DNA from: a virus
Virus record (IMG/VR): IMGVR_UViG_3300025929_000013
Span: 1-64,000 of that record
Length of the DNA stretch: 64,000 bases
Reading direction: 5' to 3' (one strand)
Part shown: piece by piece, positions 7,243 through 34,356 of the stretch
Layout of the letters: the number at the start of each line of letters is the position of its first letter
Numbering within the stretch: the stretch's first letter is position 1
Program-made: the position numbers and the translations under genes
The notes under the pieces: generated by a model
Told to the model about the DNA's origin: nothing
Databases searched by the model: none
The model's input: only the letters and a program-made list of their open reading frames with translations

Positions 7243-7809
7243 GTGCACGTGCGCGAGACCAAGCAGCAGTGGCAGCCCTGGCGTCATTACCGGGTGACCG
7301 AACTCGGCGGCAGCGTGCTGGAAGAGTACTTCACCCTGCCGAAGAACGCGGCGCGCGACACGGGAGCGCTGTTCACCGCACCGGACATCGACGCCGCACA
7401 CATCGGCGCGACCCTGATCCGGCTCGCGGAACTGTGGGGACCGGTGACGATCCGGCCGCTGGCGAAGACGCCCGACAGCATCACCGGCGCCAAAAGTCCG
7501 CACGCCGGGAGCAGGACCGTCGAGCGGCGGTGCAAGGACTCCGGATGCGACCAAACGGCCCACTACAGCTACGTGACCGAGTACGAGCGGCGCGAGCTGG
7601 AGGGGACGCCCTGGCACTGCTCCTCGATGTATCCGCCGTATCCGGACAGCGAGTCCGCCACCCGGCGGCATATCCGGTGCGCGCTGGCCGAGGCGGGCGC
7701 GCCGAATTCAGGGGAGCTGGCGGACGCCGTGCTGCTCGCGATCGGCGCGCAGCTCGACGAGCTGGAGACGTTCTGGCTCGCCCATTACGAGTGCACCAAG
7801 GAGGCCTGA
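7243..7809 (+). CDS. hypothetical protein
   Basis: AAGGAGG RBS. Confidence 0.7.
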   Translation: MHVRETKQQWQPWRHYRVTELGGSVLEEYFTLPKNAARDTGALFTAPDIDAAHIGATLIRLAELWGPVTIRPLAKTPDSITGAKSPHAGSRTVERRCKDSGCDQTAHYSYVTEYERRELEGTPWHCSSMYPPYPDSESATRRHIRCALAEAGAPNSGELADAVLLAIGAQLDELETFWLAHYECTKEA

Positions 7810-7810
7810 C

Positions 7811-8272
7811 ATGGGAGCGATCGGAAGCCACAAGCCGGACCCGCGGCTGCACCACCCGGACGGCTCGCATCGCACGACTGCGCGCAGCGCGAACGCCGCC
7901 GAGATGGCCTGGTTCGAGGAGCACGTGAAGGACCATGCGGAGCAGCACGAGATGCAGGCCGAGCAGTGGGCGCTCAGCCGCGCCCAGCTCTCACTGCTGC
8001 CGCAGGGTCACCGGCTCTACACCCGCGTCGTGAAGGTCAACGCCACCGACGGACGCGCGCATGTCATCGTCCGCTACCCGTGGGCGTCCGAGTTCGGGCT
8101 CACGATCCAGTGGGTGAACGTCGACCCGGCTCTGATCAGCTGCGAGCGCAGCCCGGAGGCGGGCGCGTACATCCTCGACGACTCCGGGATCGACGCCGGG
8201 GAGACGATCGTGATGCGCCTGGGCGAGGCGGTCCACGGCGACCGAGGCTACTTCTACCGGTACTCGCTCTAG
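7811..8272 (+). CDS. hypothetical protein
   Basis: AGGAGG RBS. Confidence 0.7.
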   Translation: MGAIGSHKPDPRLHHPDGSHRTTARSANAAEMAWFEEHVKDHAEQHEMQAEQWALSRAQLSLLPQGHRLYTRVVKVNATDGRAHVIVRYPWASEFGLTIQWVNVDPALISCERSPEAGAYILDDSGIDAGETIVMRLGEAVHGDRGYFYRYSL

Positions 8273-8277
8273 GAGGA

Positions 8278-8697
8278 ATGATCATGCCCGAGCAGGAGTA
8301 CACCGAGGACCAGGTCCACGCGAACTTCGAGAACATCCGCTTCTCGTGGGAGGAGCCGGACGGCGAGTTGGAGGAGGCGATCCTCGCCGTCTACCGGATG
8401 CCGACGGTCAACGAGGACGAGTCCGTCGTCGAGGCCGTGATCGCGTTCATGATGGAACACGAGGGCCCGACCTACACGCCCGAGCTGATCCGCGCGTACG
8501 GCGACCGGTACCAGATCAGCTACAAGGACGCGAATGAGCTCGCGGAGGAGGACCTGCGCAACGTGATCGGCGAGGAGATCGTGCGGTTCTTCACCTACAT
8601 CGATCTCGACCGGCTCGGCGGCGATCTCGTGAGTGACGACGCGACCCACTACTTCGAGCACGGCGGCCGGATCCACTATTTCGGATCCGAGGCCTGA
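8278..8697 (+). CDS. ArdA-like protein, paralog 3
   Basis: DRYQISYKDANELAEE...YIDLDRLGGDL...HYF; acidic. Confidence 0.55.
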   Translation: MIMPEQEYTEDQVHANFENIRFSWEEPDGELEEAILAVYRMPTVNEDESVVEAVIAFMMEHEGPTYTPELIRAYGDRYQISYKDANELAEEDLRNVIGEEIVRFFTYIDLDRLGGDLVSDDATHYFEHGGRIHYFGSEA

Positions 8698-8698
8698 C

Positions 8699-8968
8699 AT
8701 GGCCGAGGGAAGGACGCGGATCCGCGTCACGCTGCCCGTGCTGGCCACATTCGAGACGACACTCGACACGGCGGCCCTGCTGCACGTCGGCGACTGTGAC
8801 ATGGCTCTTATCAAGGAGATGTCGCCGCAAGAACTCGGCGCGATGGTTTTCGACCATGAGGATTTCCTCGGGATGACGCCATTTCGCTATGTGGTGAGCG
8901 CCGTCACATCCAGAGTGCATGGGGTCGAGCCGACCGCGCAGATCATCGAGGAGGGAGAAAATGGCTGA
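8699..8968 (+). CDS. hypothetical protein
   Basis: coupled ORF. Confidence 0.6.
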   Translation: MAEGRTRIRVTLPVLATFETTLDTAALLHVGDCDMALIKEMSPQELGAMVFDHEDFLGMTPFRYVVSAVTSRVHGVEPTAQIIEEGENG

Positions 8969-9248
8969 GTCCACGACGGTCGTCGTGTTCCGCAAGTGGC
9001 GCGACAAGAGCGTGATCGGGGACGGCGTGATCGCCCTGTTCCCCGAGATCGACGACGGGCGCGGGATGTGCTCCTCGTTCGAGCACGTCGGCCAGCACGG
9101 CGCCGCGGACTACGACGGCGTCATCTCACGTACCCGCGCGGCGGATCCGGCGGAGTACGCCGCGCTCAAGGCGGAGCTGGAGGCCGCGCCCTACAACTAC
9201 AAGCTGGATGTCCGCAAACGACGCAACGGGAGGGCCAATGCCTCTTAG
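8961..9248 (+). CDS. conserved phage hypothetical protein
   Basis: VVFRKW...VIALFP...HVGQHGAA...EYAALKAELE motif familiar from mobile elements. Confidence 0.75.
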   Translation: MAESTTVVVFRKWRDKSVIGDGVIALFPEIDDGRGMCSSFEHVGQHGAADYDGVISRTRAADPAEYAALKAELEAAPYNYKLDVRKRRNGRANAS

Positions 9249-9615
9249 ATACGACCTGAGCAAGATCGAGGGCTTCGAAGCCCTCTGCTACGTCGACACG
9301 CCCCTGGGACGCGTGCTCAACCCGGTTACCGAGGCATTGATTATCAACGACGTCGGCTACCGCGAAATCACCGCGATGAACTCGGCGGATTTCTTTCATC
9401 GGCACTGCCTGCTCGCGGCCGTCCTCGGCGCGCCGGTCATCAACGGCGACGGCTCCGACTGGTATTTCACGCAGGGCGACGTCAATGCGCATATCGGCCT
9501 GGTGACCAACCACACCCAGCTGACCGACAGCAAGTTCAAGGCGGCCGTCTGGCAGCTGGTGGAGGAGAAGGCCAGGAAGCTGCGCATCCAGCACCGGGTC
9601 AAGGTAGAGGCCTGA
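9238..9615 (+). CDS. hypothetical protein
   Basis: GGAGG RBS. Confidence 0.7.
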   Translation: MPLRYDLSKIEGFEALCYVDTPLGRVLNPVTEALIINDVGYREITAMNSADFFHRHCLLAAVLGAPVINGDGSDWYFTQGDVNAHIGLVTNHTQLTDSKFKAAVWQLVEEKARKLRIQHRVKVEA

Positions 9616-9617
9616 CC

Positions 9618-9971
9618 GTGTTCAGCGCGCGGTCTTCAGACCTCAAGCTGAAGGCCAAGCGGTCCTACACGGAAGGAGAGGAGTACATGATAATTCTCGG
9701 CATCCCGAAACTCGTCGAGGACGGCGAGTGGCGTATTCCGATGGTCGACCCCGATACCAAGGCGCGTTTCGGGCACGTCACCGCGTGGGAACCGGAAGGC
9801 GGCGATCCCGCTGCGACAACATGGGACGCCTGGCTCACGCTCGACTGCCTCGGGCGGGACGTGCTAGTCGGCAACGGTCTGAGCCACATCAAGGCGTTAC
9901 ATGCGCTGGCCGACGCACACCAGCGTTTCCAGGCCGGTAAGAATCCGGAGACCTTCGAGATCGTCCGCTAG
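9618..9971 (+). CDS. hypothetical protein
   Basis: ORF track. Confidence 0.6.
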   Translation: MFSARSSDLKLKAKRSYTEGEEYMIILGIPKLVEDGEWRIPMVDPDTKARFGHVTAWEPEGGDPAATTWDAWLTLDCLGRDVLVGNGLSHIKALHALADAHQRFQAGKNPETFEIVR

Positions 9972-26810: not shown

Positions 26811-29036
26811 ATGCCCATCATCAGCCCTGGAAATCAGGAGTCGAACGCCGACGGCGCCATCGAGCTTCGGATCGCCGCGGATATCGATGAGACGACAGGC
26901 TGCACCTTCTCCGCCACGGGCCTGCCCGACGGGCTCGAATTCGAACGCAAGAAGTTCGAGGATGACGAGGAGCACACCTGGCAGACCGGCCGCATCATCG
27001 GAACTCCCAAGCGCGCCGGGATTTACCAGGTCACGGTCACCGCGATCGACAAGGCCGGAACCAAGACGACCGCGTCCTTCGTGTGGACCGTCTGCGCCAT
27101 GCGGGCGTACAGATTCGCACTGGACCTAAGCGACCCGCAGATCACGGCCATGCAGCAGCACGCGGGCACCGCGCGGTGGGCCTACAACAAGGCGCTGGAA
27201 GCCAAGGTCAACGCCCACAGGGCGTACACCGAACGGCTCAAGGCCCTGCTCGCCTCTGGACTGACGCCACAGCAGGCGAAGGCCCAGATGAAAAAGGAGA
27301 GCGCGGCGCTCAAGGCGCAGACCGCGATCTGGGAGCACCACCGCCAGTGCCTGACCGCCATGAACCTGGGCAGGGCACTGCCCGCCAAAACACCGCGCGG
27401 ACCGCAGGAACTGATCGACGACCTCGCCGCGATCCGGGCGATGGTGCCCGACGGCGTCGACCCCGCGCTGCTCACCCTGGTGGGCAACTGGAAGGGACAG
27501 CCGCCCACGGCGCTGTGCTGGGCGCGCGACCGCCACGAGGCACGCCAGAAGTGGATTAAAACCCACCTCGTCATGGCGCGCCAGACCGTCACGCACCTCA
27601 AGCAGCAACTGTTCGACCTCGGCGACACGATCCCCAACATGATCGAGAACCTGGCGAACTGGCGCAACACACGCGACCTTCCCAAGGAAGAGGGCGGCTC
27701 GCCGTGGTGGCAGGAGGTCAGCTCCTACGTGTTCTCCGGCGGCATGGGCCGCGCGGACGCCGCGTGGAGCAACTGGCTCAAGTCCCTCAGCGGACAGCGC
27801 GCCGGTAAAGCCGTCGGATACCCGCGGTTCAAGAAGCGCGGCCAGTGCGCCGACTCGTTCCCGCTCTTCCACGACGTCACCAATCCATCGATACGCATCG
27901 AGGGATACCGGCACCTGCGCCTGCCGAATATCGGAGAGGTGCGCGTCCACAACTCCGGGCACCGCTCCGGTACACGCAACCGCGTCACCGCGACCAACGC
28001 GAAGGGCGTCAAGCGCACCGTCAGCGGCCAGAGCAAGGGCCGCCTCGGTTCGACCAAGCGCCTGGTGCGCATGATCGAGCGCGGCGACGCGATCGTGCAG
28101 TCCGTGACCGTCGTGCGCGGCGGACACCGCTGGTATGCCAATGTCCTGGTCAAGCTCACCCCTGAGGCGATGCGCCAGCGTGAAATGGTGGCGCGCGCCC
28201 ATCAGAAGGTCTCCAAGAAGCGCGCCCAGGGCCGCGGGAACGTCGGCGTCGAGTGGGGTGTGCGCACCCTGGCCACCCTCTCGAACGGGGAATCGTTCGC
28301 GAACCCCAAGCCGGGCAAGAAGAACCAGCGACGCCTGCGCGTCGCGTCCCAGAAGGTCAGCCGCAAACCGCACAAGCGCGGCCAGCCGATCTCCGCGAAC
28401 CGCGCGGCGGCGATCCGCCAGCTCGGCAGGGTCCACCACGAGATCGCCGAGACGCGCAAGGGCAACCACCACCAGATCTCCGCCGCGATCTCGCTCGGCT
28501 ACCGCGGCGTCGCCGTACGGGGCCTGGACGTGAAGTCCATGACCAAGTCAGCGAAGGGCACGGTCGAAAAGCCCGGCAAGCACGTGAAGGTCAAGTCGAC
28601 CTTCAACCGCGCGGCCCTGGACGCGGCGCCGGGCATGCTGCAAAACCAGATCAGCTACAAGACAACCCAGTACGGCGCGAAATTCGGGGTCGCCCCGAAG
28701 GACCTGCCGTCCAGCCAAACCTGCTCAGCGTGTGGGTGGCGAGATCCAAGCATCCCCCTGACGCAGATGACCTTCCGGTGCGGAAACGTAGAGTGCGGCA
28801 AGAAAATCGACCGCGAGGTCAACGCCGCACGCAACATCCGCAACTCAGTATTTCCCGTGGCCTCAGACAGTGGGGACACGTTAAACGCCTGCGTAGATGG
28901 CATAGGACCCCCGGGCAGCCGAGGGCAGCCGTCGCCAAAACAGGAAGACCCCGAGCCCCATCCCCCACCGGAGGATGGACCCGCGGAGGGTCATTCCGGG
29001 GAAGCGATTCCCCGGCGTTCTCACACCCCGGGCTGA
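26811..29036 (+). CDS. tnpB: TnpB/Cas12-like RNA-guided protein, predicted nuclease-dead, with N-terminal putative Ig (He_PIG-like) domain
   Basis: MRAYRFAL...HAGTARWAYN.AL (IS605 OrfB HTH), GYPRFKK, LRLPNIGEV, RuvC-I VGVEWG, RuvC-II VAVRGL, Zn ribbon CSACG...CGNVECG, RuvC-III DREVNAARNI; N-terminus FSATGLPDGL...GRIIGTP..AG.Y.VTVTA.D. Confidence 0.9.
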   Translation: MPIISPGNQESNADGAIELRIAADIDETTGCTFSATGLPDGLEFERKKFEDDEEHTWQTGRIIGTPKRAGIYQVTVTAIDKAGTKTTASFVWTVCAMRAYRFALDLSDPQITAMQQHAGTARWAYNKALEAKVNAHRAYTERLKALLASGLTPQQAKAQMKKESAALKAQTAIWEHHRQCLTAMNLGRALPAKTPRGPQELIDDLAAIRAMVPDGVDPALLTLVGNWKGQPPTALCWARDRHEARQKWIKTHLVMARQTVTHLKQQLFDLGDTIPNMIENLANWRNTRDLPKEEGGSPWWQEVSSYVFSGGMGRADAAWSNWLKSLSGQRAGKAVGYPRFKKRGQCADSFPLFHDVTNPSIRIEGYRHLRLPNIGEVRVHNSGHRSGTRNRVTATNAKGVKRTVSGQSKGRLGSTKRLVRMIERGDAIVQSVTVVRGGHRWYANVLVKLTPEAMRQREMVARAHQKVSKKRAQGRGNVGVEWGVRTLATLSNGESFANPKPGKKNQRRLRVASQKVSRKPHKRGQPISANRAAAIRQLGRVHHEIAETRKGNHHQISAAISLGYRGVAVRGLDVKSMTKSAKGTVEKPGKHVKVKSTFNRAALDAAPGMLQNQISYKTTQYGAKFGVAPKDLPSSQTCSACGWRDPSIPLTQMTFRCGNVECGKKIDREVNAARNIRNSVFPVASDSGDTLNACVDGIGPPGSRGQPSPKQEDPEPHPPPEDGPAEGHSGEAIPRRSHTPG
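28857..29025 (+). ncRNA. putative omegaRNA/tracr-like scaffold overlapping the 3' end of tnpB
   Basis: Sequence after NAARNI resembles actinobacterial TnpB right-end scaffolds (TTAAACGCC...GGAAGACC...GGGTCA) and ends in the hairpin CCGGGGAA-GCGA-TTCCCCGG (28996-29015). Confidence 0.5.
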
Positions 29037-29080
29037 TTGAAAAATCAACAGTGGATGCGCATACGCGCAGGTCGCACAGT

Positions 29081-30529
29081 GTGCGCCCCGCGGGCGTGTG
29101 GAATGGTCGCACGCTCCACCGGTGGTGAGGGACGTGAGTACGTGCGCCCCGCGGGCGTGTGGAATGGTCCGCACCGTTCCTCGACCACGCATGGGTCGCG
29201 CCGTGCGCCCCGCGGGCGTGTGGAATGGTCGTAGTGCAGTACGGCGAAACAGCCCGCTAGAGCGTGCGCCCCGCGGGCGTGTGGAGCGGTCGACGGCGTC
29301 AGTGCGGTGGCATACATAGTGGCGCTGCGCCCCGCGGACGCGTGAGACGGTCATCGGTAAGCTGACTTCCCAGAGCGCGTGAAATGGGCGCCCCGCGGAG
29401 CGTGGAACGGTCGCAAGGATGCTTACTCGGCTCCTACTGAAGGCCGTGTGCCTTGCGGGCGCGTGAGACGGTCCATCCACCCAGATGACGAGCGAGCAGA
29501 AGCCCAGGTGCGTGGAATGGTTCGGGGACTCCAATTGGTAGGAGCCAACAAGGGTTTCCCCCGCGGGCGCGTGAGACGGTCGTGACGGCAGTCGTTATGG
29601 CACAGAGTCCGCATAGGCGCGTGGGATGGTCTCAGACTCACGTATTACAGCCAGGCCGCGCAGCGGAGTGCGCCCCGCGCACACGTGAGGCGGTTCTGAC
29701 GCAGGGCGTTGAGTCACCCCGTGCACACAGAGAACGGTCCGCCTGGTGGGCGGTGGCATGAGTTGGGAAATTATGTGCCCCGCAGATGCGTGAGACGGTC
29801 GGGTCGAATGTCCATGGTTGTGGCGCAGGTCGCACAGGGTGCGCCCCGCGAGCGCGTGGGACGGTCGTGAAAATACCAGCAGGGCTTTGACCGAGGGCAG
29901 TGCGCCCCGCGGGCGCGAGGAATGGTCGACCCGTCTGGGCTGCTGTCCGTGGACAGCAGCGTGCAGCCCGCGGGCGCGTGGGTCGGTCTGAGTCAGGAGG
30001 CCACGATGGACGCTGTCGGCGGTGCGCCCCGCGGGCACGTGGGTCGGTCGTTTGAGTCCGAAGGAACCGCCCGATGAACGTCGTGCGCCCCGCGAGCGCG
30101 TGGGTCGGTCGGATCTACATGGACCAACCGTACAGACGGAGCGGTGCGCCCCGTGGGCGCGTGGAACGGTCGTGGCCCGGTCGCGTAGGCGGCGCAGGTC
30201 GCACAGGGTGCGCCCCGCGGGCGCGAGAAATGGTCGGTTACGTACGACAGGTCACCCATCAACAGCAGGTGCGCCCCGCGGGCGCGAGAAATGGTCGTGG
30301 TGTAGGGTGCCCGCACTCGAACACTGCGAGTGCACCCCGCGGGCGCGAGAAATGGTCGGAAGAGCTCTCGGTTGATACTGTCCCCCTGCGTCTGCGCACC
30401 TCGGGTATGCGCGGGACGGTCAGAGTGCCAGTGAAAGTTCTCGTCAACGTTCTGATGCTCCCCGCGGGCATGTGGAACGGTCCAGGTATGCTGCTGGTCA
30501 GATACACCCCGTGCACACCGGGAACGGTC
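29081..30529 (+). CRISPR. CRISPR array with type I-E-derived 28-bp repeat (consensus about GTGCGCCCCGCGGGCGYGTGGAAYGGTC), about 25 repeats, mostly 33-nt spacers
   Basis: Repeats start at 29081, 29142, 29203, 29264, 29325, 29386, 29446, 29554, 29668, 29773, 29839, 29900, 29961, 30022, 30083, 30144, 30208, 30269, 30330, 30394, 30455 plus degenerate or truncated copies; 61-bp period; unique spacers. Confidence 0.93.
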
Positions 30530-30558
30530 TGGTGCATTACCAGTCAAGCAGTACGCCG

Positions 30559-31329
30559 GTGCGCGCAGAAAACGGTCGCCCTGGAAAGCTGCGGTGTGCG
30601 CGGAACGGTCGGCCCTGCTCTCTCAGTCGCGCAGAACGGTCAGCCTGGTACATGTACCACCGCGCTAGGGAACGGTCGGGAGCAGCGCGTGCCCGGGAAC
30701 GGTCCATGTCCATGATGTCGGTGAGATGAAGGACGGTCAGGTCCTATCGGGCGGGCTGAGAACGGTCGGAAAAGAATGTACGGGCGCAGCGGTGGATGAT
30801 GCTCCTCGCTCATCCACCGGCGAACGGTCTCCCCCGAAGTGTGCGGTCTACATGCCGCGGATGCGCAGAACGGTCCGCTTCCCGAGAGAAAGCGCAGAAC
30901 GGTCAAGGCTGGTTAGCTCCGGGCGCGAGAACGGTCTGGGCTCAGAATAAGGGTGCGCAGAACGGTCCAGTGTGAATGACGGTCAAGTGTCTGCCAGGGG
31001 CCAGCATGTGAAGAACGGTCATACGCCTGAAGAACGGTCATACGCCTTTGAGTACGAACGCATCCCAGGGGCGACGGTCGATGACCATGGCCTGCGGTGA
31101 ACGGTCCGGAGAGACCCCGGTGCCGAGCGGTCCAAGAAGTGGTGAACGGTCCAGGTCTGTGTCGGGCGAACGGTCCTTGAGCCATTCGAACCCGGCGCCG
31201 GGAGAACGGTCATCCAAGTATGCCGAGCACGGTCTGACAGTCACAGCTACGCGCGTAGAACGGCCTAGTTGTCGGCGGGGCAAGAGAACGGTCCAGGTCT
31301 CCCGAGATCATCAAGGCGCTACAATGGTC
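30559..31329 (+). repeat. array of about 26 mini-units retaining only the repeat 3' end (GAACGGTC) separated by short unique sequences
   Basis: ACGGTC-type motifs end at 30577, 30610, 30641, 30677, 30704, 30738, 30767, 30829, 30875, 30904, 30936, 30967, 30984, 31020, 31039, 31079, 31106, 31151, 31175, 31211, 31234, 31293 and others. Confidence 0.85.
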
Positions 31330-31395: not shown

Positions 31396-31470
31396 TGCGG
31401 GGTAGCGCAGCTCGGTAGCGCGCTGGGCTCATATCCCAGAGGTCGCTCGGTTCAAATCCGGCCCCCGCTA
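31396..31470 (+). tRNA. tRNA-Met (CAT), initiator-type
   Basis: Cloverleaf; anticodon arm CTGGG-CTCATAT-CCCAG with three G-C pairs; 1:72 mismatch; TTCAAAT T loop; no encoded CCA. Confidence 0.88.
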
Positions 31471-31477
31471 CAGCAAC

Positions 31478-31512
31478 AGCCCCCTCCTATCACCGGGTAG
31501 GAGGGGGCTTCT
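31478..31512 (+). terminator. terminator hairpin between convergent genes
   Basis: AGCCCCCTCCTA...TAGGAGGGGGCT. Confidence 0.75.
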
Positions 31513-31518
31513 CTGCGT

Positions 31519-31734
31519 TTACGGCTCGACGCCGGTCAGAGCCTGCACCTGGGCGACCGTGATGCCCTCACGACTCAGCGCCTTGAGCCGCGCGATCCGC
31601 AGCTCGTCACGCACGCGCTCCTTCTTGAGCCGCTGGAACTCCACCATCGACCGCAGCATCATCGGCAGGCAGACCGGGAGCGCTACGAGGAACAGGCTCA
31701 GGCAGACGAGCAGCATCACGGTGGGCCAAGACAT
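31519..31734 (-). CDS. small membrane protein
   Basis: TM N-terminus MSWPTVMLLVCLSLFLVALPV plus charged helix. Confidence 0.55.
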   Translation of the reverse strand: MSWPTVMLLVCLSLFLVALPVCLPMMLRSMVEFQRLKKERVRDELRIARLKALSREGITVAQVQALTGVEP

Positions 31735-32256: not shown

Positions 32257-32667
32257 TAGCAGCAAGAGGCCCCCGTCCTCTGGTGTGCGGCGGGGGCTTC
32301 TCTGCGTTTGCGGCGAGCCTCCTGGCATCGCCACTTCGGTAGCTGCCATAGTTCAGCTTCATGCCAAGCCTTCCACCGGAGTCCACGCAAGACCGGCTCG
32401 TCCGCCGTATAAAGTCCGCCACTGGCGTTGACTGCACGATCTTCGACGGGCGCACCGTGGCACTTGACGAGCGTGAGCTCTACCATCTCCTGTCCGTGCT
32501 GGCCTGTGATGCCGAAGATCCCAAGAGCGCCGCCCTACTGGCAAAACTGCTGCCCATGCCACAAGCTACAGGTCAACGGCCTGGGGATGTGTGTGTGTTT
32601 GACACCACATCGCGAACGCGGTGTACTCTCAAACACGTACATCCGCGATCTAGGGAGAGCGTGTGGC

Positions 32668-34356
32668 ATGCCCCCTGTAGATACACCGCTAAGAAGACCA
32701 GCTCGATGCAAGCGCGCCATCATCTACGTACGTGTATCCAAGGCACGCGAGGTGATGTACAGCCCCGAGCAGCAGATCATGCGCTGCGAGCAGTACGCCA
32801 AGCAGCACAACATCCAGATCGTCGACATCGTGCGGGACCTTAACCTCAGCGGCCGGACCTTCGAGAAGCGCAAGGTCATCGAGATCATCGAGCGCATCCA
32901 GAACGGTGAGGCCGAGATCGTCCTGGTGTGGAAGTACAGCCGCTTCGGACGATCGAAACTGAAGAACGCGGTGCACATCGTCCTGGTGGAAAAGGCTGGC
33001 GGCCAAGTGATCAGTGCCACCGAGGGTGGCAATGAGAAGACCAACGTCGGACGCCTGAACCGCAACATCATCATGTCTGTGGACGAGTTCTACTCCGGCG
33101 TGATGGGCGACACGTGGAAGGACACCCACGAGCGGCGTCGCAACAGCGGTCTCCCGCACACCGGTAAACCCCGTCTGGGGTACATGCGCTGTCCGAAGTG
33201 CGAACGAGACGAGGAAAACCCGACCAAGTACAAACCCTGCGAGTGCGGCGGCGTTTTCGTCCCCGATCCTGAGCGCGCGTGGGCGGTCAAGGAGGTATAC
33301 ACGCGTTTCACCGAAGGTGAGGGGCTACGCAAGGTCATTGCCGATGTAGCCTCCCGCGGAGTCACCACGACTGTTGACGGGGCGCCTCTTACGTGGGGGC
33401 ACTGGACCACCGCGCTCGACTCCGGATTCGCGGCCGGTTGGCTGCGCGCAAAGAGCGAGGAGGCCAAGGAGGAGAACCCCAATGGGCGGCGCATCGACGA
33501 TTACGACGTCTGGGTTAAAGGTAAGCACGATGCGCTGATCTCCGAGGAAATCTGGCAAAAATACAGGAAGCGCCGCATGGCGCGTGAGCGACTCCCCCCG
33601 AAGGCTCGCGAGCCCAAGCACTCCCTAAGTGGTTTCATCCGGTGTGGCGGTCGCAATTCCGATGGGGAACTATGCCTGCGCGTGATGACTGCGGCGAGGG
33701 GTGGCCGTAAAGGCGAGAAATACGTAGTTTTTCGGTGTCCCGTCCACGCCGACACCGGCGCATGTACCGGAAGCTCGATCGGCCTGATCACGACCGAGAA
33801 GATCGTACGCCGGTGGATCCGAGACAACGCGAAGGATGACGGTCGACGCCAGCGTGCACTCGACGAGATGCTTACGTCCGAACAAAACGCAGGCGAGCTT
33901 AGGCATGCACGCGCCCGCGTGGCGCAGCTAGATGAGAAGCGAACGAAACTCGCAAGCGGTTGGGCCTCTGGGCTTCTGAAAGATGATCTCTACCGAACGC
34001 TCTCGGAAGAGCTCGACGTCGAACTTGATGTGGCGCATGCCACTGTGGCGAAGTTGGAAAGGGCAACCACCCGCATCGAGCTGGGCCCAGAGGTTTTCCT
34101 GCCCATCGCGGAGCAATGGGATGGCCTTCCACCCGCAGCTAAAAACGAAGCTCTGCAACATGTGGTCGACCACATTATTTCGATTCCGATGCCCGGACGC
34201 GCCCGTACTATGGCACGCGTTGTCGGACTTGGTGAGGCGTATGACTATGCATTGCCATCCCGCGGTGTATCGCGTGTCCGGGCGCGGCGCAATGCCTCTC
34301 TCGCCAAGACGCACCAGAACGCGTCCCAATCCGGAGTGACGCCAGGCGAGGAGTAG
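32668..34356 (+). CDS. large serine recombinase (integrase)
   Basis: IIYVRVS catalytic Ser, D..LSG, SRFGRS, recombinase domain, Zn ribbon (LSGFIRCG...C...RC...C), coiled coil. Confidence 0.93.
   Translation: MPPVDTPLRRPARCKRAIIYVRVSKAREVMYSPEQQIMRCEQYAKQHNIQIVDIVRDLNLSGRTFEKRKVIEIIERIQNGEAEIVLVWKYSRFGRSKLKNAVHIVLVEKAGGQVISATEGGNEKTNVGRLNRNIIMSVDEFYSGVMGDTWKDTHERRRNSGLPHTGKPRLGYMRCPKCERDEENPTKYKPCECGGVFVPDPERAWAVKEVYTRFTEGEGLRKVIADVASRGVTTTVDGAPLTWGHWTTALDSGFAAGWLRAKSEEAKEENPNGRRIDDYDVWVKGKHDALISEEIWQKYRKRRMARERLPPKAREPKHSLSGFIRCGGRNSDGELCLRVMTAARGGRKGEKYVVFRCPVHADTGACTGSSIGLITTEKIVRRWIRDNAKDDGRRQRALDEMLTSEQNAGELRHARARVAQLDEKRTKLASGWASGLLKDDLYRTLSEELDVELDVAHATVAKLERATTRIELGPEVFLPIAEQWDGLPPAAKNEALQHVVDHIISIPMPGRARTMARVVGLGEAYDYALPSRGVSRVRARRNASLAKTHQNASQSGVTPGEE

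Follow-up and report, generated by a model that had tools for sequence, protein, structure and literature searches.

We propose, at a probability of roughly 0.55, that the last ~770 bp of a phage CRISPR array constitute a compacted set of working minimal crRNA modules, used by a Cas12n-like effector that binds DNA without cutting it. The array lies in a 64,000-nt window, which opens a viral record of 108,847 bp rated complete by CheckV (window G+C 67%). Judging from the sequence comparisons described below, this tail would be the older, compacted part of a type I-E-derived array that serves the phage's own Cas12n-like (type V-N-like) effector, a protein without nuclease residues. Each crRNA would dock on a scaffold RNA from the end of the effector gene through only the last nine bases of the repeat, with repeat positions −9 to −4 pairing with a six-base anti-repeat just after a GNRA hairpin and positions −3 to −1 entering a pseudoknot with the 5′ hairpin loop of this scaffold. 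Deletions would have removed the repeat palindrome and part of the spacer from each old unit, and selection would have retained the nine docking bases followed by ~20 unique bases, leaving each mini-unit as a minimal crRNA module, ~30 nt long where a full unit has 61. With a dead RuvC domain, the complexes would bind and silence DNA rather than cut it; we infer transcription, assembly with the scaffold, guide function and silencing by the mini-units. The locus and its surroundings comprise the following features:

26811-29036, + strand: gene for a 741-aa Cas12n-like (TnpB-derived) effector, assigned by Pfam, NCBIfam and a family profile
29027-29079, + strand: leader, read from the sequence, with a small AAAA-loop hairpin and then the 15-mer GCGCAGGTCGCACAG (29065-29079)
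29080-30482, + strand: main array of 24 units, mostly 61 nt (range 59-66), with units 8, 10 and 12 partly truncated
30483-30577, + strand: two transitional units, 25 and 26 (47 and 48 nt), with the repeat partly deleted
30578-31329, + strand: 25 mini-units, or 26 if unit 26 is included, the series then starting at 30530
31009-31047, + strand: tandem duplication of one mini-unit (TRF: period 19, 2.1 copies, 100% identity)
31396-31471, + strand: tRNA-Met gene (ARAGORN; Rfam tRNA, 56.6 bits), 66 nt after the last mini-unit, where the array region ends
32428-34356: large serine recombinase gene

Type V-N Cas12n, formerly V-U4/C2c9, is exemplified by RdCas12n (PDB 9J09) and AcCas12n. The effector gene of the window, which the earlier note on this DNA had rightly expected to be of TnpB/Cas12 type, encodes a protein with Pfam matches to HTH_OrfB_IS605, OrfB_IS605, Cas12f1-like_TNB and He_PIG and NCBIfam matches to guided_TnpB and IS607_TnpB. 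A profile built from the effector and 15 relatives matched RdCas12n (PDB 9J09; PMC12216341) over its full length (profile positions 6-480; E 6e-86). The RuvC triad is replaced: E481, R570 and E669 align with D191, E278 and D361 of ISDra2 TnpB, and this E/R/E combination is invariant in all 16 proteins of the family set. The effector is therefore, by sequence, Cas12n-like (type V-N) and very probably unable to cut DNA. More distant relatives (P0019, L012, L073 and L074) keep D/E/D, among them the Actinomadura craniellae homologue P0019, which is 45% identical to the effector; the closest relatives are P0003 (69% identical), P0004 and P0005. The N-terminal Ig-like He_PIG domain (aa 5-94; 26811-27098) is common to P0003-P0005, and a ~110-aa insertion (~27350-27690) is shared with P0003, P0004 and P0006; both are absent from ~500-aa relatives. 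In a near-identical 96,690-bp contig (P0002), the reading frame of the effector gene shifts after residue ~531 and continues into the array, reflecting either a broken allele or an assembly error in this sister genome. A search for Cas1 (PF01867) gave no match in the 108.8-kb genome.

Within the window, GAACGGTC occurs 23 times against 3.2 expected, a count that none of 100 shuffles reached. Twenty-two copies are on the + strand (29405-31293), and across the entire 108,847-bp genome every + strand copy falls within the array. Cutting the region after each (N)GGTC gave 51 units, which are thus motif-defined. A full unit combines a 28-nt I-E-like repeat, GTGCGCCCCGCGGGCGYGWGRAAYGGTC, which has a palindromic core, with a ~33-nt spacer; a mini-unit combines a unique segment with a terminal 9-nt handle, AGAACG followed by GTC. 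The earlier note had described compact units recurring around the 3′ end of the repeat, one of them tandemly duplicated, and truncated repeats inside the main array that keep the same end. All of this was borne out: 18 copies of GAACGGTC fall within 30559-31329, the 26 mini-units span 17-62 nt with a median of 30 nt, the duplication is the 19-nt one listed above, and the shortened units 8 (ending at 29522), 10 (29631) and 12 (29739) retain the repeat's 3′ end. Its further statement that the 5′ part of the repeat is lost needs correcting: several mini-units carry a 5′ remnant, GTGCGC, joined directly to (G)AGAACGGTC.

A typical mini-repeat thus resembles a full repeat without its palindrome, and the fused sequence is the product expected if the palindrome was lost by slippage between the flanking GCGC direct repeats. 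Palindrome loss covers ~11 nt, and the remaining shortening must derive from the spacers; median unit length minus the handle is 21 nt, and four mini-units leave guide room of only 8-10 nt. The 19-nt duplication is recent, as one copy is missing from a contig of another sample (run X2). Units 1-24 follow a constant-length repeat/spacer pattern with a 61-nt period, whereas 30530-31329 does not, and guide sets of this kind escape standard array finders. Protein coding of the tail was considered and rejected, the unit lengths not being multiples of three. The leader's 15-mer GCGCAGGTCGCACAG recurs directly before units 14 (~29823-29837) and 20 (~30192-30206), dividing the array into blocks with their own repeat variants, a pattern that recombination could have produced by stacking complete arrays, each with its leader end.

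Handle conservation was quantified as per-position information content, a check that the earlier note had named. Across the 26 mini-units, positions −8 to −1 carry 1.0-2.0 bits, −9 carries 0.4 bit and positions further upstream at most 0.7 bits; bases −8 to −1 are retained in 21-26 of the 26, and −13 to −10 are near random. In full units, −8 to −5 carry only ~1.0 bit and are less uniform than in mini-units. A handle more uniform in shrunken than in intact units is the opposite of what decay predicts. Outside the handles, segments are no more similar to one another than shuffled sequences, the one known duplicate excepted, and because the mini-spacers are mutually unique, handle uniformity does not come from recent amplification. 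The earlier argument that random decay should not preserve the same bases so often thus gains from both comparisons, and the sequence data support a conserved handle under constraint.

These observations bear directly on the possibility that the tail is a dead relic, in which old units lost function and were whittled by deletions, slippage across the palindrome preferentially removing the 5′ part. The mini-units do lie at the leader-distal, oldest end, with a gain of unit 1 seen between samples at the effector side, and graded intermediates exist (units 8, 10, 12, 25 and 26). Neutral decay, however, should blur the handle like its neighbours, and the contrast between −8 to −1 and −13 to −10, together with a handle more uniform than in young full repeats, speaks against it. 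On the relic view the high motif count would be a matter of appearance, the units being motif-defined, but 26 motifs per 800 bp amount to twice the density of a 61-nt array and would call for many deletions all sparing the same nine bases. A relic would also suit the prevalence of GTGCGC+(G)AGAACGGTC as the expected palindrome-deletion product, the lower G+C of the tail (0.62 versus 0.68), the lost G at +1 discussed below, the lack of identified targets and a phage without Cas1. On balance, and with the docking and L073 comparisons that follow, we regard a dead relic as unlikely.

The bases kept in the mini-units can be matched to a candidate RNA partner. The elements of this RNA in the window are:

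28861-29026, + strand: predicted tracr-like scaffold RNA, overlapping the 3′ end of the effector ORF, with hairpins conserved in seven distinct loci
28861-28875, + strand: scaffold 5′ hairpin, loop GACAG
28998-29013, + strand: scaffold GNRA hairpin, with compensatory changes across loci
29016-29021, + strand: scaffold anti-repeat CGTTCT, extendable to 29026

Docking was compared across seven distinct loci (the window, L010, L012, L014, L071/L072, L073 and L074). In all seven, the loop of the 5′ hairpin begins with three bases complementary to repeat positions −3 to −1, and a hexamer 2 nt after the GNRA hairpin is complementary to positions −9 to −4:

Window (+ strand): anti-repeat CGTTCT with repeat AGAACG; loop GAC with repeat end GTC
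L010: anti-repeat CTTCCC with repeat GGGAAG; loop GAT with repeat end ATC
L012 (5′ hairpin picked less objectively than those of the other loci): anti-repeat CGTTCC with repeat GGAACG; loop GAC with repeat end GTC
L014: anti-repeat CCATCC with repeat GGACGG, one mismatch; loop GAG with repeat end CTC
L071 and L072: anti-repeat CAGCCC with repeat GGGCTG; loop GGT with repeat end ACC
L073: anti-repeat ACACCC with repeat GGGTGT; loop GGA with repeat end TCC
L074: anti-repeat CCTTCC with repeat GGAAGG; loop GAC with repeat end GTC

The anti-repeat was first spotted by seeking the complement of the motif, and its support therefore comes from the fixed position and the covariation at other loci, not from a p-value. 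Given that the rule holds with compensatory changes in seven loci, both scaffold contacts would be made by the last nine repeat bases, and the nine bases kept by the mini-units coincide exactly with these two predicted contacts, which again weighs against a relic. Mini-unit handles also pair better with the scaffold than full repeats do: a perfect (6/6) Watson-Crick match to the anti-repeat is present in 11/26 mini-units and 0/20 full units, and a match at five or more positions in 21/26 versus 3/20 (Fisher p 1.6e-5). The sole 6/6 match within the main array belongs to truncated unit 12, and five of the 26 handles form four or fewer Watson-Crick pairs. One reading is that wobble pairs in the lower stem are no longer tolerable once a unit has lost the upper stem. 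The z-score for folding the scaffold by itself was weak (−1.88). We discarded another candidate anti-repeat, GGTCATTCC (28988-28996), as it is not complementary in L010 and sits in a conserved long-range stem; a scan for promoter and terminator consensus sequences yielded nothing useful.

The elements compared are those published for RdCas12n, whose tracrRNA is 170 nt long and overlaps the end of the ORF and whose crRNA has 40 nt, with a pseudoknot formed by repeat positions −4 to −2; only about −11 to −1 of the repeat part is ordered, and the upper repeat:anti-repeat stem (stem 5; −39 to −12) is disordered and tolerates modifications (PMC12216341). Cas12n guides are 20 nt long (PMC12216341), and for TldR proteins, which are dead TnpB relatives, 9-16 nt of guide suffice (10.1101/2023.11.30.569447); the median mini-unit segment of 21 nt would fit both.

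The base following each handle is harder to accommodate. A G at +1 is found in 14/24 full units and in 5/27 mini-units; in full units it fits, as an indirect sign, I-E-type (AAG-type) acquisition, and its loss may mean that the retained segments are very old or are not intact PAM-proximal spacer ends. The proposal of the earlier note, a minimal guide made of the repeat's 3′ handle plus the start of the spacer, thus fares unevenly: handle constraint, the docking coincidence and guide length speak for it, and the depleted +1 G speaks against the spacer-start part. Further points count against minimal guides, namely the weakly pairing handles, the guides of 8-10 nt, the lack of targets and the short contact, 6-7 bp plus a 3-bp pseudoknot, on which assembly in trans would depend.

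The +1 composition, differing from that of Cas1e-type units, could also arise if mini-units were made at mini size by copying, either as re-inserted DNA copies of mature crRNAs or through acquisition independent of Cas1-Cas2. Their median size of 30 nt equals handle plus guide, and their consensus at −9 is A (16/26), with G in all full repeats. Yet unit lengths vary widely (17-62 nt), graded intermediates and repeat 5′ remnants favour deletion, and no reverse transcriptase or alternative integrase is linked to the locus, as judged at the level of the locus. We consider such copying very improbable, and compaction by deletion remains our preferred account of how the mini-units arose.

Related loci provide an independent view of this compaction. 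On a 155,226-bp viral contig (L073) with an effector 39% identical to that of the window and an intact D/E/D triad, ~8 units of 55-61 nt are accompanied by ~17 units of 13-48 nt, and the short units retain GGGTGTTCC, the docking nonamer of that locus. The same compaction in different letters argues for a property of the RNA system rather than of one phage's DNA-binding site, and it is likewise unfavourable to a dead relic.

L073 also informs the idea that the handles are selected for something other than guiding, such as an RNA sponge or buffer titrating scaffold or effector, processing punctuation, or a DNA-binding array (iteron, centromere or packaging site). A short motif repeated many times in one orientation beside a tRNA gene and an integrase region would be in keeping with such roles, but the motif of L073 differs and still matches its own anti-repeat, which links the handle to the scaffold RNA rather than to a protein that binds DNA. 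The earlier note had itself raised an iteron as the competing possibility; spacing in the tail is irregular (17-62 nt), in contrast to that of iterons and centromere repeats, a Pfam search of nine neighbouring ORFs gave no Rep or Par domain, and the motif continues the 3′ end of the CRISPR repeats in the same orientation and is absent from the rest of that strand. A decoy would be served equally well by perfect complementarity to the anti-repeat, and no targets were found; a sponge, however, needs no unique inserts of ~20 nt, and the unique segments are guide-like in length. Taken together, a non-guide role for the handles appears quite improbable.

The origin of the array is clarified by a 202-kb viral contig (L010; locus 7788-9644) of the same dead clade (E/R/E), whose effector is 46% identical and which has a homologous leader and a clean eight-repeat array with Cas1e and Cas2e directly after it. 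This association identifies the array type as I-E-derived, and L010 can be read as a complete adaptive system around a putatively non-cutting Cas12n-like protein. The L010 record holds several further TnpB homologues. At L012 (7517-7730), a Cas12n/TnpB-like gene with intact D/E/D precedes just three repeat units of ~66 nt, which diverge in their 5′ parts but share a conserved terminal stretch of 11-13 nt (GAGGAACGGTC), almost the same as the window handle. Protein-pattern scans for the dead clade recovered only L010/L011 (IMG/VR and JGI), L012/L016 and L013-L015, and a search of 401 genomes of one phylum returned nothing new. GenBank phages contain only distant TnpBs, and megablast and blastn searches of the locus and array against them gave no match. 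Two motif scans were discarded: IMG/VR matches to three spaced GAACGGTC motifs proved to be coding tandem repeats with non-unique inserts, and three matches to the repeat core were judged to be chance.

The expectation that sequences after the motif would match targets beside a shared TAM was not borne out in the phage itself, in GenBank phages or with three IMG/VR seeds. For full and mini spacers alike, 10-12-nt seed matches within the phage genome stayed at control level, with no common flanking motif, and searches against GenBank phages returned no target. In the IMG/VR scan with 20-nt seeds, spacer 2 and mini-unit 29 had no match. The one match to spacer 1 (L067, 7693-7712) covers 20 of 33 bases, lacks an AAG flank and was set aside as probably chance. 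On L067, a 44.9-kb viral contig, the first 20 nt of spacer 1 are matched exactly inside a small ORF with the 5′ flank GCT and no further identity.

Sequence variation and RNA-library contigs offer a glimpse of the locus in other samples. Three rhizosphere metatranscriptome libraries share a contig that starts at 28861 or 28865 and ends at ~29228-29248 within the array; as Logan contigs rather than reads, these show presence and a recurring boundary but neither strand, processing nor level, and DNA carry-over is possible. The shared start corresponds to the scaffold 5′ hairpin, 28861 being its first base. Mini-units 34-43 (30834-31111) are covered by one low-depth RNA-library contig, which differs by one substitution and lacks the 19-nt duplicate. 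This near identity of the mini region in a contig from a different habitat (259 nt, one substitution and one 19-nt indel) and the shared scaffold start both count in favour of minimal guides. Unit 1 (29080-29141) is absent from the three RNA-library contigs and from one rhizosphere DNA run, seen as a 61-nt skip from 29080 to 29142, and this points to gain at the effector-proximal end. Unit 1 is thus polymorphic in a phage without Cas1.

The locus was compared with several known systems. As in Cas12n, the array adjoins the effector gene, a tracr-like RNA overlaps the ORF end, and the crRNA takes its handle from the 3′ portion of the repeat, a pseudoknot immediately preceding the guide (PMC12216341); RdCas12n is also the closest solved structure by sequence. 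For the A-rich 5′ PAM (AAN) of Cas12n, the target searches gave no protospacer to compare. Unlike Cas12n, an RNA-guided dsDNA nuclease with an intact D/E/D triad, the window effector has an E/R/E triad, an N-terminal Ig-like domain and a ~110-aa insertion, the system is borne by a phage without Cas1/Cas2, and half of the array is cut to 9-nt handles, a state that we did not find described for Cas12n arrays in the literature searched.

The resemblance to TldR (Wiegand et al., 10.1101/2023.11.30.569447) lies in a TnpB-derived protein with inactivated RuvC, carriage by temperate phages, possible use of short guides (9-16 nt) and an expected action through RNA-guided DNA binding and repression. 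TldRs, however, belong to other TnpB clades and have one fixed, scaffold-fused guide, whereas the window, on the Cas12n branch, has ~50 guides in a CRISPR-type array, and its relative L010 even has Cas1e/Cas2e. Where a TldR would direct a single guide to a nearby promoter, we found an array of ~50 units with no self-matches above chance.

Type V-M Cas12m binds DNA and blocks transcription, and it occurs on plasmids and some prophages, where it likely acts against rival elements (PMC11656645). It thus resembles the window system, for which DNA binding is predicted from sequence, in pairing a non-cutting DNA-binding effector with a CRISPR array on a mobile element; the two differ in that protein similarity is weak (UnCas12m4a, E 4e-4) and the window has a tracr-like scaffold and I-E-type repeats. 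TranC (LaTranC, PDB 9JFO/9JFQ) likewise has a TnpB-like effector and an omega-RNA functionally split into scaffold and repeat-guide units, and the relative L012, with its active TnpB and three repeats, looks like such a transposon-CRISPR intermediate. LaTranC is nonetheless a distant match (E 1e-16), and the window array is large, I-E-derived and compacted. Leader-distal repeats are known to degenerate, and phage repeats that resemble host type I-E repeats are known from viral mini-arrays and solitary repeat units acting as RNA anti-CRISPRs (PMC11656645, PMC10651486); the window, by contrast, has ~26 units with a uniform nonamer rather than one decayed repeat, and its mini-units lack the hairpin (palindrome) that a solitary Cas6e-binding mimic needs.

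For phage Cas12n-like systems at large, we see an even chance that they keep "handle-only" libraries, in which a nine-base handle acting on a shared scaffold is joined to a ~20-base guide within ~30 bp instead of 61; here, a dead effector with more than 25 fixed mini-guides and ~24 ordinary guides would silence genes of the host or of rival elements. We found no paper describing handle-only arrays in the literature searched. Should the mini-units prove functional, the minimal crRNA of a miniature type V effector would already be set by nature at nine repeat bases making two scaffold contacts, which would be useful for dense multiplex guide arrays in compact Cas12n/TnpB tools. Arrays on size-limited phage genomes would then compact under selection rather than merely decay, and the presence of a naturally dead effector beside them points to a multi-target silencing system encoded by the phage. 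Handles at other loci can be predicted, and hidden guides found, with the covariation rule of anti-repeat and loop pseudoknot.

Downstream of the array, an exact 18-nt direct repeat, GGGGGCTTCTCTGCGTTT, is present at 31503-31520 and 32292-32309, each copy after a G+C-rich hairpin. They enclose 0.8 kb containing two small ORFs, in the interval from the tRNA-Met gene to the serine recombinase gene.
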